A DNA stretch of 11,755 nt from a virus. Under the pieces are notes generated by a model. That model worked only from the letters and a program-made list of their open reading frames with translations, was not told the DNA's origin and made no database searches. Position 1 is the first letter of the stretch, and each line of letters opens with the position of its first letter. Shown here piece by piece: positions 595-8,569 of the stretch. The position numbers were made by a program, and so were the translations under genes. The DNA lies in the UHGV virus genome UHGV-2173514, one strand, 5' to 3'.

Positions 595-855
595 TTAATT
601 CTGAGATAAAGGCAAACTCATCTGATTGTTTCCCCTGTGTGAAGCTGGCAGATCATGCCACGGGATACCTTCTGAAGAGTGAACGCCGGAGGCGTGTTTT
701 GATGTGAATTTATGGAAAGCTTCCAGTGTTGAGAAGCATACGCCGCATTCCAGATTGTTACACTGGTAATACTTTTGCCGCACGGTGTTTGAATCATTTT
801 CCGGACGACTGGTGCGGATACGGGCAGATGCGCCACAAAGCGGACAACGGAACAT
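595..855 (-). CDS. ogr: Ogr/Delta-family zinc-finger late transcription activator
   Basis: 86-aa ORF starting MFRCPLCGASARIRTSR...YYQCNNLECGVCF, matching the P2 Ogr pattern MFHCPLC...ARTSR...YHQCQNVNC with four Cys in C-x2-C...C-x4-C spacing. RBS AAGGGAGG lies 5 nt upstream of the ATG at 855. Confidence 0.85.
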   Translation of the reverse strand: MFRCPLCGASARIRTSRPENDSNTVRQKYYQCNNLECGVCFSTLEAFHKFTSKHASGVHSSEGIPWHDLPASHRGNNQMSLPLSQN

Positions 856-895
856 AGCGACCTCCCTTAACGTGGTGCTGCCTATTCTAAGTTGC

Positions 896-2005
896 TCACT
901 CTGTTTCCGCTATCCATTCCGGGATTTTTGCCTCAAGCTCAAGCTGCGTGGTAAAACCGCTGTTATCAATGGTGTGCTCGGCTTTTGCAATGATCCAGTC
1001 CTGATTATCAATCTCGCTTTTAAATCCTGTTACCGTGCCATGCATTTCGGGGTAGAGTTCTGCACGTCCACGCGCCAGCGTGATGGAGAATGATGCGGCT
1101 CCGCGTTGTAGTTGCTGCCACTTTGCCGCCGCTGCGCGTCTTGCTGCCTGCTCGTTCTGATAAGTCTTGCGTAACACAAACACATTGCCTTCCGCGCCTT
1201 CCATATAATCACCTTCGCGGCTGCTGCTTTTCTCCTTTTTGGGTTTTGGCGGTTTACGGCGTTTCACGCTGACTTTTTTCTTTTTCCCGTAATTAAGATC
1301 AAGCCAGTAAGCGCGTACCCCCGTATACGCTTCGCGGTCAGCAATGCGGAACTGATGGCGATCGCCGCTGCTGCGTGTGATGGCAAACGATGGCAACGGC
1401 TGGCCCTGTGCGTTCACGCCACCGCCGGGCATGATGAATAACAGATTACCGCTTTTTACCGTGGTGATTGCGCCCAGCATTTCCGCCATGCGCGTAAGGA
1501 AGGACATGTCGCTTTCTTCGGTCTGGTCGGCGTGGTCGATTTCGATATCCATCAGCATTTCGCTGATTTGCGGTTTCAGACCATACCGATGAGCGATGGC
1601 GGATACCACACGCTCAACGGTCACATCATGCCAGGACACCTCACGTTTAACGTTAAATTCATCCCGAAAATCTGCGCTTCTGGCTGAAACAGTCAGCCTG
1701 TCCGGCGGTCCTTCGTGAGCGATTTCATCAACAATGTAAGTGCCTTTTTCTGTCAGCGGTTCTCCTTTCCAGCCAATGAGAACCGTCAGGCGCGCGCCCC
1801 GTGGCGGTAGCTGCAACTGACCATCCGCATCATCCAGCGTGATGGTGAGCTGGTCCGCCTCAAATCCCCGGTTGTCGGTCAGTGACAGGCTCATCAGGCG
1901 CTCTGCCACGCCTGACAGCGTTTTACCCTCCGCGAGAATATCAAAATCCGGCATTTTCACGGGGTCTGTGCCCTGACTGAGCAATTGCATGGTGGTGTCG
2001 GTCAT
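896..2005 (-). CDS. D: P2 gpD-like tail protein (late control gene D family)
   Basis: Long minus-strand ORF (track 896-2137). I place the start at the internal ATG at 2005, which has a GGGAGGGAG RBS 3 nt upstream (MTDTTMQLLSQG...), giving 369 aa. Family assigned from size, position next to ogr and overall similarity to phage D proteins. Contains a Lys/Arg-rich insert (GKKKKVSVKRRKPPKPKKEK). Confidence 0.8.
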   Translation of the reverse strand: MTDTTMQLLSQGTDPVKMPDFDILAEGKTLSGVAERLMSLSLTDNRGFEADQLTITLDDADGQLQLPPRGARLTVLIGWKGEPLTEKGTYIVDEIAHEGPPDRLTVSARSADFRDEFNVKREVSWHDVTVERVVSAIAHRYGLKPQISEMLMDIEIDHADQTEESDMSFLTRMAEMLGAITTVKSGNLLFIMPGGGVNAQGQPLPSFAITRSSGDRHQFRIADREAYTGVRAYWLDLNYGKKKKVSVKRRKPPKPKKEKSSSREGDYMEGAEGNVFVLRKTYQNEQAARRAAAAKWQQLQRGAASFSITLARGRAELYPEMHGTVTGFKSEIDNQDWIIAKAEHTIDNSGFTTQLELEAKIPEWIAETE

Positions 2006-2162
2006 CTGCTCCCTCCCTGTGCGGCATGGTCGCATGTGCGTGCGGAGGGGGTTACTGCTTTTTGTTGTCGCCGTGGCGGGAGAACGGCGCAGGGGTGAGA
2101 TTACGCGCGTGGTGGGTGATGATTGTTGCCGAATCATTTAACGGATACAAGGGGCTGAAGCT

Positions 2163-3347
2163 ATGAGTGAAACTCGTTTTCATGGTGCCCGTGTCACGGA
2201 AAGTACCGACCTGGTAACAGCGATTAATGATGTTGATTCCAGCGTTATCGGTATCGTGGCAACGGCGGATGATGCGGATGCGGAGCTGTTCCCGCTGAAC
2301 AAGCCCACACTGCTGACCCGCGTCAATGACGTGCTGGGAAAATGCGGGACTACGGGGACGCTTTATCGTGCGCTTAAGGCTATCGCAGACCAGGTGAGCA
2401 CAAAAGTGATCGTCGTTCGCGTGGCTGAACACAAAGAAGAAGGCGGTAGGACGCAGGATCAACTGGTTATCGGTGGTTCTGAATCTGACGGCAGCTATAC
2501 GGGGATGTATGCGCTGCTTGTTGCAGAGCAGGATGAAAGCATCGGATACCGTCCGCGTATTCTGGCCGCGCCGGAGCTGGACACGGAGGCGGTGACAAAA
2601 TCCCTGTGCGTGATTGCGGGTAAACTGCGCGCGTTTGTGTATGCCACATGTCATGGTTGTAACACGATGGCTGAGGCGATTACCTACCGCCAGAAATTCA
2701 ACGAACGTGAGGTGATGCTCTTATGGCCTGACTTCATCGCCTACAACCCGAAAAGTGGCAAAAACGAAACGTTCCCCGCGCCTGCTTATGCGTGCGGCCT
2801 TCGTGCGTACATTGACCATGAGCAGGGCTGGCACAAATCGCTGTCCAACGTTCCGGTTAAAAATGTGCTGGGGATGTCGAGGCATGTGTTCTGGTCGTTA
2901 CAGGCCGAAGACAGTGATGCCAACAGCCTCAACAACAAAGAAATCACGACCATTATTCGTCGTAACGGGTTCCGCTTCTGGGGCAACCGCACACCGGAAA
3001 CGAACGCCTACATCTTTGAGGTGTATACCCGAACCGCACAGGTGCTGGCTGATTCAATTGCGGAAGCGCAGTTTGAAACCATCGACAGTCCACTGACGCC
3101 TGCGAACGTGAAGGATGTTATCAGTGCCATCAGGGCAAAATTGGATTCGCTGGTTACTGCCGGGAAACTGATTGGCGCGGAGTGCTGGTATGACGTGGTG
3201 GATAACGGCACCACGGATTTACGTCAGGGGCGTGTGCGTATTCGCTACAAATATACGCCCGTTCCCCCGCTGGAAGACATGGAGCTTTACCAGACGTTTA
3301 CTGATGAATTCTTTGGTCCCGCATTTGCGGTGCTGGGAGGTGCCTGA
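2163..3347 (+). CDS. FI: Tail sheath protein (P2 gpFI family)
   Basis: 394 aa. Shares conserved blocks with P2 FI as I recall it: DADAE-FPLNKP, LRAF-Y, YRQ-F-RE-M-WPDF, EQGWHK-LSNV, RR-GFRFWGNRT, YTRTAQV-AD, Y-YTPVPPLE. Stop TGA 3345-3347 overlaps the next ATG. Confidence 0.95.
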   Translation: MSETRFHGARVTESTDLVTAINDVDSSVIGIVATADDADAELFPLNKPTLLTRVNDVLGKCGTTGTLYRALKAIADQVSTKVIVVRVAEHKEEGGRTQDQLVIGGSESDGSYTGMYALLVAEQDESIGYRPRILAAPELDTEAVTKSLCVIAGKLRAFVYATCHGCNTMAEAITYRQKFNEREVMLLWPDFIAYNPKSGKNETFPAPAYACGLRAYIDHEQGWHKSLSNVPVKNVLGMSRHVFWSLQAEDSDANSLNNKEITTIIRRNGFRFWGNRTPETNAYIFEVYTRTAQVLADSIAEAQFETIDSPLTPANVKDVISAIRAKLDSLVTAGKLIGAECWYDVVDNGTTDLRQGRVRIRYKYTPVPPLEDMELYQTFTDEFFGPAFAVLGGA

Positions 3348-7757: not shown

Positions 7758-7765
7758 TTTAACAC

Positions 7766-7800
7766 AAAAACCGCTAATGGTCAGATTAGCGGTTTTCATT
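7766..7800. terminator. Bidirectional terminator between convergent U and invertase genes
   Basis: Stem aaccgctaat (7769-7778) / attagcggtt (7785-7794) with a 6-nt loop, flanked by an A-run (7766-7770) and a T-rich tract (7795-7800). The invertase stop codon (7786-7788) lies in the 3' arm. Confidence 0.6.
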
Positions 7801-8385
7801 TTCCTGAGTCTGCCCGGTTGTTTCTTCAGTCTGTATATCGCCTACAGGGTGATAACGATAAATCGTCGATGTGCCAATGCCGTAAATTATTGCCAGTTGT
7901 TTTCTGTCGTGCCCGTTTTTGATTAGCCTTGCTATTTGCTCATGCTGTTCTTTTGTCAGCTTCGGTCGACGTCCGCCTGTGCGCCCCCTTGCGCGCGCTG
8001 CCGCCAGCCCGGCCAGTGTACGTTCAACAATTAATTCACGTTCCATTTCAGCCAGGGCACCCATCACGTGGAAGAAAAAACGCCCCATTGGAGAAGATGT
8101 GTCTATGCTGTCGGTCAGACTGCGAAAATTAATCCCTCGCTCCCGTAGTTCCCCGACGAGAGAAATCAGATGTTTCATGCTTCGCCCGAGGCGATCCAGT
8201 TTCCAGACAACCAGCGTGTCACCTTTTTGAAGGCGCTTTAAAGCGCGTTTTAATCCCGGTCGGTCTGTCTTTGTCCCGCTTAATTTATCTTCAAATATTT
8301 GTTCACATCCTGCACAAACAAGAGCGTTTCGTTGCAGGTCTGTATTCTGGTCATTTGTTGATACCCTTACATAGCCAATCAGCAC
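7786..8385 (-). CDS. pin: Serine DNA invertase (Pin/Gin/Cin/Hin family)
   Basis: Translation LIGYVRVSTNDQNTDLQRNALVCAGCEQIFEDKLSGT...GDTLVVWKLDRLGRS...FFHVMGALAEMERELIVERT... is the hallmark serine-recombinase catalytic domain (the Ser in YVRVSTNDQ), with a C-terminal HTH (GIGTSTIYRY). Likely start is the GTG at 8385 with a GGGAGA RBS; the track's ATG at 8403 adds 6 residues. Confidence 0.9.
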   Translation of the reverse strand: MLIGYVRVSTNDQNTDLQRNALVCAGCEQIFEDKLSGTKTDRPGLKRALKRLQKGDTLVVWKLDRLGRSMKHLISLVGELRERGINFRSLTDSIDTSSPMGRFFFHVMGALAEMERELIVERTLAGLAAARARGRTGGRRPKLTKEQHEQIARLIKNGHDRKQLAIIYGIGTSTIYRYHPVGDIQTEETTGQTQENENR

Positions 8386-8569
8386 ACTGAATCTCCCGTC
8401 CAAAAGCGCAAATCATGCCATGCAGGCCAGAAACGGCCATTATTTAAAACCTCGGTTTACGAGAACTCGGCACAAGCGGGGAGAAAATACCGTTACTCAG
8501 TACAGCGAATACCTGGACCAATCGACAAACATTCAGCGGTGGCCTTTCTGGGGAACTGTCCGGCAATGC
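8194..8569. repeat. Left arm of a ~376-bp imperfect inverted repeat (partner 11084-11459)
   Basis: The reverse complement of 8194-8569 aligns base-for-base with 11084-11459 at roughly 93-96% identity by eye. It covers the invertase codons 1-64, the invertase upstream region, the gix site and ~105 bp of tail-fibre coding sequence. Confidence 0.85.
8440..8465. other. gix/hix-type invertase crossover site (left)
   Basis: TTATTTAAAACCTCGGTTTACGAGAA matches Mu gixR (TTATCCAAAACCTCGGTTTACAGGAA) at 22/26 positions: two imperfect half-sites around a central dinucleotide at 8452-8453. Confidence 0.8.

Follow-up and report, generated by a model that had tools for sequence, protein, structure and literature searches.

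In phage P2 (Peduovirus), the F operon runs FI FII E E' T U D on one strand and is followed by ogr. The capsid genes P-Q and O-N-M-L of the same phage are served by the divergent promoters pP and pO, for which the P2 annotation gives one Ogr site, a single dyad midway in a spacer of ~160-170 bp with the promoters ~55 nt to either side. In the P2 late promoters, the -10 element lies at an offset of 43 nt from the site centre, and the annotated starts lie 55-57 nt from it. Such promoters have a poor -35, and they are activated when Ogr binds the site and contacts the alpha subunit of RNA polymerase. Here we describe an 11,755-nucleotide stretch of viral DNA (the window) that holds the same gene set as the P2 F operon, at 31-50% protein identity, in a different order: ogr and D point leftward, FI FII E E' T U point rightward, and an invertase gene points leftward again. 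We consider it very likely that the window derives from a P88-type prophage, that its gene order is a fixed property of a clade going back to one ancient inversion of FI-U, and that D and FI would share one Ogr-type site.

On the minus strand lie an ogr-like gene for a zinc-finger late-gene activator (595-855; Pfam Ogr_Delta, E=5e-14; 42% identity to P2 ogr by tblastn), located downstream of D, and D itself, the baseplate hub or late control D gene of 369 aa (896-2005; Pfam Phage_GPD, 48%). Although the reading frame with the Phage_GPD match spans 896-2137, the real start of D is the ATG at 2005, with GGGAGGGAG ahead of it as ribosome binding site, and the protein matches, at 100% identity, a cluster of 6052 E. 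coli proteins with a length of 369 aa. The plus strand carries the flipped block (2163-7757), which consists of the tail sheath gene FI (2163-3347; Pfam sheath domains, 46%), the tail tube gene FII (3347-3872; Pfam Phage_tube, 44%), the tail assembly chaperone gene E (3928-4302; 35%, 'tail protein' in RefSeq at the collinear ST131 locus L088), the E' reading frame (4311-4466, mapped from the RefSeq 'GpE family phage tail protein' at L088 8285-8440), the tape measure gene T (4453-7256; Pfam PhageMin_Tail within the ORF 4417-7080, 33%) and the tail protein gene U (7263-7757; Pfam Phage_P2_GpU, E=5.5e-39, 46%), whose product is 99% identical to that of P88. U and the invertase gene converge on a gap at 7758-7785, in the region of which a bidirectional hairpin terminator (AAAACCGCTAAT-ggtcag-ATTAGCGGTTTT) occupies 7767-7796. 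At the prophage end, a hok/gef-family toxin gene lies at 250-390 on the minus strand, according to the RefSeq annotation of L088 (4250-4390); a MokW-like host-killing gene is annotated at this position in P88 and P88_4B11.

All seven P2 homologues (FI, FII, E, T, U, D and the Ogr/Delta activator) are thus present; Pfam misses E alone, which tblastn detects. A reading of the sequence alone had placed D and ogr on the minus strand and FI-U on the plus strand, with U convergent on an invertase, and this was confirmed by Pfam and by tblastn with P2 proteins, which recovered identical order and strands over the whole window. Its coordinates for the 157-bp D-FI spacer (2006-2162) and the U-invertase gap were accurate as well, with small corrections to the invertase start and to an N-caused truncation of FII and T. 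Indeed, the layout equals that of P2 with FI-to-U alone inverted, as had been proposed, given that the baseplate and fibre genes V W J I H G keep the D/ogr strand in P88 and related loci. The canonical P2 order, FI FII E T U D ogr on one strand, is therefore not that of the window. This is a clade-specific variant that leaves membership of the Peduoviridae unaffected, since P88, SEN4, 3LV2017 and phiT5282H are placed in this family by ICTV.

Two runs of N interrupt the sequence, 35 N at 3785-3819 in the 3' part of FII and 45 N at 6873-6917 in T, and T, compared with the ST131 reference, also lacks 27 nt at 4916, which leaves the reading frame intact. The P88 genes align on both sides of the masked positions (FII at 3347-3784 and 3822-3869, T at 4453-6873 and 6918-7253). 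FII (164 aa) and the tape measure gene (ORF break at 7080) were considered as pseudogenes, but this was rejected because the N runs differ in length from the DNA they mask and so cause the apparent truncations. At the right end, the last ~540 bp (beyond 11217) hold a truncated second invertase copy (11250-11555, plus strand; N-terminal ~105 codons, 73% amino acid identity), which belongs to a separate prophage locus in the ST131 reference genomes, instead of the constant part of fibre gene H; no intact H adjoins the invertible segment past 11213. This foreign end may reflect recombination or an assembly chimera.

The invertase gene next to U encodes a Gin/Cin-type serine DNA invertase (7786-8385, minus strand; Pfam Resolvase and HTH_7). 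While the longest ORF extends to 8403, the start is more likely at 8385, judging from a RefSeq gene of 600 nt and from the P88 invertase, which matches from this position at 99% identity. Beside it lies a gix-type crossover site (8440-8465, an exact 26-mer), and a second, inverted gix site differing at 1 position is found at 11188-11213; the 26-mer search found no further copies elsewhere in the window. Between the two sites, the invertible tail-fibre segment (8466-11187; Pfam Caudo_TAP and gp37_C, inverted repeats I1-I4) contains Sv' (to 9161, plus strand), tail fibre assembly genes at 9164-9697 (plus) and 9726-10253 (minus), and Sv (10255-11040, minus), and it matches the invertible segments of Mu, D108, P1 and P7.

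The arrangement of the window recurs widely. In complete genomes of E. coli ST131, a serS-adjacent prophage is 99.5% identical over positions 1-11217, and at least 80% of the window is held by 212 complete E. coli genomes. P88, P88_4B11 and the Citrobacter phage phiSM share the layout and align to 84-86% of the window with a nucleotide identity of 92-95%, and loci from Salmonella (L005) and 'Vagococcus' (L006) are 85-95% identical to it. By its high nucleotide identity to P88 and P88_4B11 and its collinearity with them, the window groups, over its 11.7 kb, with Xuanwuvirus (P88-like). We surveyed 80 loci from the genomes of 80 species, grouped by the identity of their D to that of the window. 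The FI-U block was flipped in every one of the 60 loci whose D reached 61% identity or more, whereas the 20 P2-type loci (D 49-54%) all had the canonical order; because the surveyed loci are related, these and the following counts of conservation are not independent events. D identity is at least 57.4% within the inverted group and at most 57.0% between groups, and the inverted loci are monophyletic in the D, FI and U trees, while a quick neighbour-joining tree did not recover their monophyly for FII. None of the surveyed clade loci has U adjoining D. The canonical order is found in the outgroups Mannheimia 1152AP and Burkholderia Carl1, and the polarity of the change is based on these two and the gene table of Burkholderia KS5. 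The flipped order is thus standard in Xuanwuvirus, Senquatrovirus, Reginaelenavirus and Novemvirus and is already contained in public reference genomes, so the unusualness implied by the sequence-only reading does not hold: P88, P88_4B11, phiSM, SEN4, 3LV2017, phiT5282H and 60 of 60 clade loci all have it.

With D and FI divergent, their promoters would have to lie in the 157-bp spacer between them, a predicted bidirectional late promoter region conserved in 54 of the 60 related loci. The exact P2 consensus TGT-N12-ACA has no match in the late spacers of the window or of P88. When the second half-site was relaxed to A(C/G)A, guided by words common to the P-O and D-FI spacers of P88, the motif was found in 54 of 60 clade spacers, where shuffled sequences gave 5.6 on average; six loci are without the strict motif, and 53 have a single dyad. 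In the window, the dyad TGTCGCCGTGGCGGGAGA (2066-2083, centre 2074.5) reads TGT-N12-AGA, the half-site being AGA rather than ACA, and is a candidate Ogr-type activator site by motif conservation. TTGT-N12-AGAAC has three copies in P88, including those in the P-O and D-FI spacers, where 0.32 would be expected. From the dyad centre to the FI ATG there are 88.5 nt in the window, and the clade median of 82.5 nt is the P2 pF value. On the FI side, 52 of 54 loci have an NAnnAT hexamer 43 nt away from the centre, and the corresponding GATGAT (2118-2123, plus strand) is the predicted -10 of an FI promoter, pF, starting at ~2130. On the D side, such a hexamer is found at offset 43 in 39 of 54 loci and at offset 44 in 4 more, leaving 11 without; 25 of the hexamers at offset 43-44 have a TGn extension, as does TG-C-GACCAT (2026-2034, minus strand), the putative extended -10 of a D promoter, pD, with a predicted start at ~2019. 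The offset is the one seen in the P2 late promoters. A generic sigma-70 scan of the spacer found nothing, as expected for activator-dependent promoters. The D half of the spacer also contains a conserved block rich in GC, GCGCGCG.

The sequence-only reading had taken the divergence of D and FI to imply separate promoters. D and FI do need promoters of their own within the spacer, but the geometry and conservation of the motif are better accounted for by one activator site that would drive both through mirror-image -10 elements, which also fits the P2 precedent of pP and pO. Control through two independent activator sites, or through constitutive promoters, would accommodate the varying distance from the site to the D start codon (48-116 nt, with approximate start calls) and the GCGCGCG block. 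However, with one dyad per spacer in 53 of 60 loci, -10-like hexamers at equal offsets on both sides and a single-site precedent in P2, we regard it as unlikely. Less probable still is a module replacement, in which a foreign phage with a contractile tail would have donated FI-U and the cassette happened to insert in the opposite orientation. Phage genomes are mosaic, and the adjoining fibre and invertase genes clearly form a cassette of Mu/P1 type, but the flipped FI, FII, E, T and U, at 33-46% identity to P2, are about as distant as the non-flipped D (48%), V (47%), W (44%), Q (47%), P (44%) and N (41%), in keeping with a divergence that is uniform over all late genes (31-61%). Moreover, the split into two groups seen with D recurs in the FI and U trees, and the pF activator site keeps its P2 spacing to FI, both of which speak against replacement.

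An active-looking invertase gene adjoins the U end of the block, raising the question of a recent or reversible inversion by this Gin-type enzyme at secondary gix-like sites. Enzymes of the Gin family are able to use pseudo-sites, which would favour this explanation. A preprint on ST131, which we counted on the same side, describes invertase-linked rearrangements among prophage tail-fibre segments. Yet the best gix matches at the D-FI and U-invertase junctions, 13/26 and 15/26, are at background (12-16/26), and the inverted repeats flanking the FI-U block are only short chance pairs, such as one of 26 nt at 77% (I6). The inversion is found without any invertase in Senquatrovirus, Reginaelenavirus and Novemvirus, and the gene is absent from about 52 of the 60 inverted loci, only ~8 of which carry one. 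Both orientations were not seen among close relatives; all 60 clade members share one. An origin by the resident enzyme is thus highly improbable, and the sequence-only reading, seeing no gix-like site at either junction, had likewise judged it probably not the cause. Given that most flipped loci have no invertase and neither junction has a gix-like site, the FI-U order is not the work of this enzyme, whose action is confined to the fibre segment that its two gix sites enclose. Finally, the assembler could have mis-oriented FI-U, the true order being that of P2, and the source assembly is indeed imperfect in its masked N runs and in the right end beyond 11217, which comes from a second locus. 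We give this alternative, which the sequence-only reading had also raised, almost no credence, since the D/FI and U/invertase junctions recur in independently sequenced phages, in 212 complete E. coli genomes, and in 60 loci of many genera.

The explanation we prefer is a single old, fixed inversion, given that all clade loci are flipped while P2-type loci and outgroups are canonical. The window would come from a P2-like E. coli prophage of the P88 type (Xuanwuvirus) and cover its late region on the right-hand side. One ancient event would have carried FI-to-U together with the FI promoter and the Ogr binding site, setting D back-to-back with FI, and the resulting order would have been inherited and fixed, rather than switchable, in a large clade of the Peduoviridae. 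From the predicted dyad, ~55 nt upstream of each of two mirror-image late promoters, pF and pD, the product of the ogr-like gene would activate transcription in both directions, into the FI-U operon on one side and into D(-ogr) on the other. We slightly favour the further idea that the dyad symmetry of the Ogr site made the inversion viable in a single step, as D would have come to lie beside an already bidirectional site. A second bidirectional late promoter resembling pP/pO would thereby have been created, which the clade may later have refined with mirror-image -10 elements at 43 nt.

RefSeq reference genomes from at least four ICTV genera already show the layout, and so do hundreds of genomes of E. 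coli; its discovery value is therefore small. It does matter for annotation: synteny rules based on P2 (U beside D, one F operon) fail for this clade across many Enterobacterales genera, and a divergent D/FI junction is no reason to suspect a rearrangement or mis-assembly. We found no mention of the inversion in the literature on P88, phiSM, SEN4, Burkholderia P2-likes, Pseudoalteromonas ACA phages, the P2 defence hotspot or ST131, although Casjens-type reviews of P2-like prophages lay outside the scope of this search and an earlier mention is possible. One Ogr-type dyad driving D and FI through symmetric -10 elements would be a small, testable addition to the model of P2 late regulation. If true, single-step viability would show cleanly, in a natural case, how the co-option of a promoter can split an operon; we found no description of this in the literature on these P2-like phages.

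The closest known systems, P88, P88_4B11, phiSM and the serS prophage of ST131, share the order hok, ogr, D / FI-U / invertase / invertible fibre segment, and the window differs from them by its truncated second invertase end, its N runs and the 27-nt deletion in T. Senquatrovirus SEN4/SEN5, Reginaelenavirus 3LV2017, Novemvirus phiT5282H and Serratia phage KSP20, with D 63-77% identical to that of the window, have the same inversion and a D divergent from FI, but lack an invertase or invertible fibre segment by U and differ in cargo genes. With the Mu G and P1 C segments, the window shares a Gin-type invertase and two inverted 26-bp gix sites at 7786-11213, and its duplicated Sv/U fibre genes are 88-93% identical to those of Mu, D108 and P1; this system flips the fibre segment only, and no role in the FI-U order was detected. 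P2 resembles the window in its Ogr-type activator, and the predicted promoters of the window resemble those of P2 in a TGT-N12-ACA-type site, 82.5 nt upstream of FI in P2, and in the position of the -10 elements, whereas in the window D is not last in the F operon but heads its own leftward unit with ogr, and the fibre-inversion cassette occupies the fun(Z) slot. The predicted architecture of the D-FI spacer is like that of P2 pP/pO, with the difference that start sites are mapped in P2 and predicted in the window, and that the P2 pair serves capsid genes, while the window copy would serve the tail genes D and FI.

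We show here that the window carries the tail genes FI to U flipped, relative to P2, against D and ogr. Genes were called from the ORF listing and Pfam scans and cross-checked by tblastn with P2 reference proteins. On the minus strand, ORF and Pfam evidence places an Ogr/Delta zinc-finger gene at 595-855 (86-aa product, 42% identity to P2 Ogr) and D at 896-2005 (48%). On the plus strand it places FI, encoding the tail sheath, at 2163-3347 (46%), FII, encoding the tail tube, from 3347 (44%), the tape measure gene T at 4453-7256 (33%) and U at 7263-7757 (46%), while tblastn identifies E at 3928-4302 (35%). 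The layout and coordinates of the sequence-only reading are thereby confirmed. Although the longest D ORF extends to 2137, the ATG at 2005 has a ribosome-binding site and agrees with relatives; it is the start of D, and the spacer between D and FI runs from 2006 to 2162, exactly 157 bp. Beyond U, a gap at 7758-7785 leads to a minus-strand resolvase-family invertase (7786-8385/8403, from ORF and Pfam), and a hairpin with a perfect 12-bp stem (7767-7796) reads as a terminator both ways. The stretch 8466-11187 then carries, as inverted pairs on both strands, two C-terminal fragments of fibre genes together with two genes for fibre assembly. A Hok/Gef-family (MokW-like) toxin gene at 250-390 on the minus strand, between ogr and the serS-side prophage end, has an N run just upstream and is kept in P88 and P88_4B11.

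The flipped FI-U layout is neither an artefact nor unusual. Among phage records searched by megablast, P88, P88_4B11 and Citrobacter phage phiSM, all of the genus Xuanwuvirus (Peduoviridae), match at 92-95% identity over 84-86% of the window. Their annotations have the same order as the window: one strand carries V W J I H G together with the invertible segment and invertase, the opposite strand U T E' E FII FI, and D and ogr come next on the first strand again. In a comparison with complete E. coli genomes, the window is 99.5% identical across 1-11217 to the prophage that ST131 strains carry next to serS, and 212 genomes contain at least 80% of it. The D protein of the window is the same as that of an E. 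coli cluster with 6052 sequences. The layout had been taken as unusual unless it proved standard in a known phage group; it is the standard order of Xuanwuvirus and of other genera, so its unusualness is not borne out. One P88-type enterobacterial prophage, whose D shares 98% identity with that of the window, lies on a contig labelled 'Vagococcus sp. WN89Y' (NZ_JBQPOM010000071.1), and its placement under a Gram-positive name probably reflects contamination or a mislabelled assembly.

How widely the inversion is shared was seen in a survey in which an alignment of D proteins led to 80 loci, fetched from one-genome-per-species contigs and classed by tblastn with P2 and window proteins. All 60 loci with D at least 61% identical to that of the window are flipped (V W J I (G) rightward, U T E FII FI leftward, D ogr rightward), whereas the P2 order is found in all 20 whose D is 49-54% identical. 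The split is clean: D proteins of the inverted group share 57.4% identity or more with one another, those of different groups 57.0% or less, and neighbour-joining trees of D, FI and U each recover the inverted loci as monophyletic. Their hosts include Salmonella, Serratia, Pectobacterium, Erwinia, Pantoea, Enterobacter, Kosakonia and Klebsiella, as well as Xenorhabdus, Photorhabdus, Providencia, Morganella, Yersinia, Hafnia, Edwardsiella and Symbiopectobacterium, among others, and the clade's named phages include SEN4/SEN5 (Senquatrovirus), 3LV2017 (Reginaelenavirus), phiT5282H (Novemvirus) and Serratia phage KSP20. Given that the outgroups Mannheimia 1152AP and Burkholderia Carl1, along with the KS5 gene table, show the canonical order, the P2 order is ancestral and the clade of the window carries a single old inversion. 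The inversion is unmentioned in the P88, phiSM and SEN4 papers, a comparative paper on Peduoviridae and a large study of P2 hotspots, even though it is plainly seen in deposited annotations. Five inverted-clade loci, one of them from Symbiopectobacterium purcellii (L015, with L008, L043, L067 and L078), have split or duplicated FI, T, E or J matches, which suggests decaying prophages in symbiont genomes.

The FI-U block is unlikely to be a foreign cassette rather than a reoriented resident one, because the other late genes of P88 are as diverged from P2 as the FI-U genes are, with tblastn identities of 47% for Q, 44% for P, 41% for N, 47% for V, 44% for W and 54% for J. The comparison with P2 upholds an inversion limited to FI-U alone. 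As for the agent, the resident invertase had been thought an improbable cause, and we agree. Within the window, the 26-bp gix sequence is confined to 8440-8465 and an inverted copy with a single mismatch at 11188-11213, a pair that brackets the fibre segment; the best matches at the FI-U junctions (13/26 and 15/26) are within the background of 12-16/26 in random 270-nt pieces of the window. A repeat search of the window found no inverted repeat around the block, and an invertase adjoins U in only some 8 of the 60 loci with the inversion and is absent in three other genera.

At the right end of the window (11048-11755), past the gix at 11188-11213, come a second, truncated invertase (11250-11555, plus strand) and methyltransferase-side DNA, in place of the constant part of fibre gene H after the invertible segment. 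The stretch 11218-11755 matches another ST131 locus (L089) at 100% identity. That locus, about 540 kb off in complete genomes, is the remnant of a lambdoid prophage near trp and has a fibre segment and truncated invertase of its own; about 1.1 kb of near-identical Sv and gix DNA is common to both loci. The joint was found in none of the top-ranked complete E. coli genomes; it reflects either inter-prophage recombination or an assembly chimera, and if a crossover between direct repeats produced it, the reference map would make it the joint of a deletion. A preprint on ST131 describing inversion and translocation among fibre segments of P88-like and other prophages bears on this end.

Three N runs, at 410-431 (22 nt), 3785-3819 (35 nt) and 6873-6917 (45 nt), occupy places where the ST131 reference has 9, 22 and 22 nt, respectively, and shift the reading frames. 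Because their lengths differ from the DNA they replace, FII seems short and T broken, but truncation or frameshift of either is only apparent. T also carries a 27-nt in-frame deletion (9 codons) at 4916 relative to the reference.

Separate promoters for D and FI had been implied by the flipped layout, and conserved geometry in the spacer supports this prediction. The P2 record has one activator site for the divergent pP/pO, with starts 55 nt either side of the dyad centre, and annotated sites for pF and pV that precede the starts by 56-57 nt. The exact consensus TGT-N12-ACA was not found in the D-FI spacer of the window. The P-O and D-FI spacers of P88, however, have TTGT-N12-AGAAC in common (three occurrences in P88 versus 0.32 expected), and in the window this motif is at 2065-2085, with TGT at 2066-2068, AGA at 2081-2083 and the dyad centre at 2074.5. 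TGT-N12-A(C/G)A, mostly in the perfect ACA form and with variable N12, occurs in 54 of the 60 flipped-clade spacers, whereas shuffled spacers average 5.6 and reach at most 11. Since its centre lies a median of 82.5 nt (range 74.5-88.5) from the FI ATG, as in P2 pF (82.5 nt) and canonical loci (79.5-84.5), pF evidently travelled with FI, judging from sequence spacing. A third exact TTGT-N12-AGAAC copy, inside the tape measure gene (6490-6510, minus strand; P88 28824-28844), the same in both, may be chance or an internal late promoter.

An NAnnAT hexamer starts exactly 43 nt from the dyad centre on the FI side in 52 of 54 loci and on the D side in 39, with four more at offset 44 and a TGn extension in 25; it is nearly missing at other offsets. 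In the window, the putative FI-side -10 is GATGAT (2118-2123, plus strand), with a predicted start near 2130, and the putative D-side extended -10 is TG-C-GACCAT (2034-2026, minus strand), with a predicted start near 2019, both at offset 43. A GC-rich block, GCGCGCGCG, is kept across the clade between the dyad and the D-side -10 (window form GTGCGTGCGG, 2036-2045). Inside the 3' end of D, a sigma-70-like promoter match, GTAACA-18-GATAAT (1004-1033, minus strand), precedes ogr by about 150 nt and is a candidate promoter for separate expression of ogr, like that of P2. From conservation and analogy with P2, the most economical reading is that one shared Ogr-type site would activate D(-ogr) and FI-U divergently. 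Such a proposed symmetric one-site promoter pair is a modest, testable by-product of the analysis. In P2 itself, the late -10 elements share their offset from the dyad with the putative ones of the flipped clade, and the predicted D/FI arrangement would amount to a second copy of the P2 pP/pO design.
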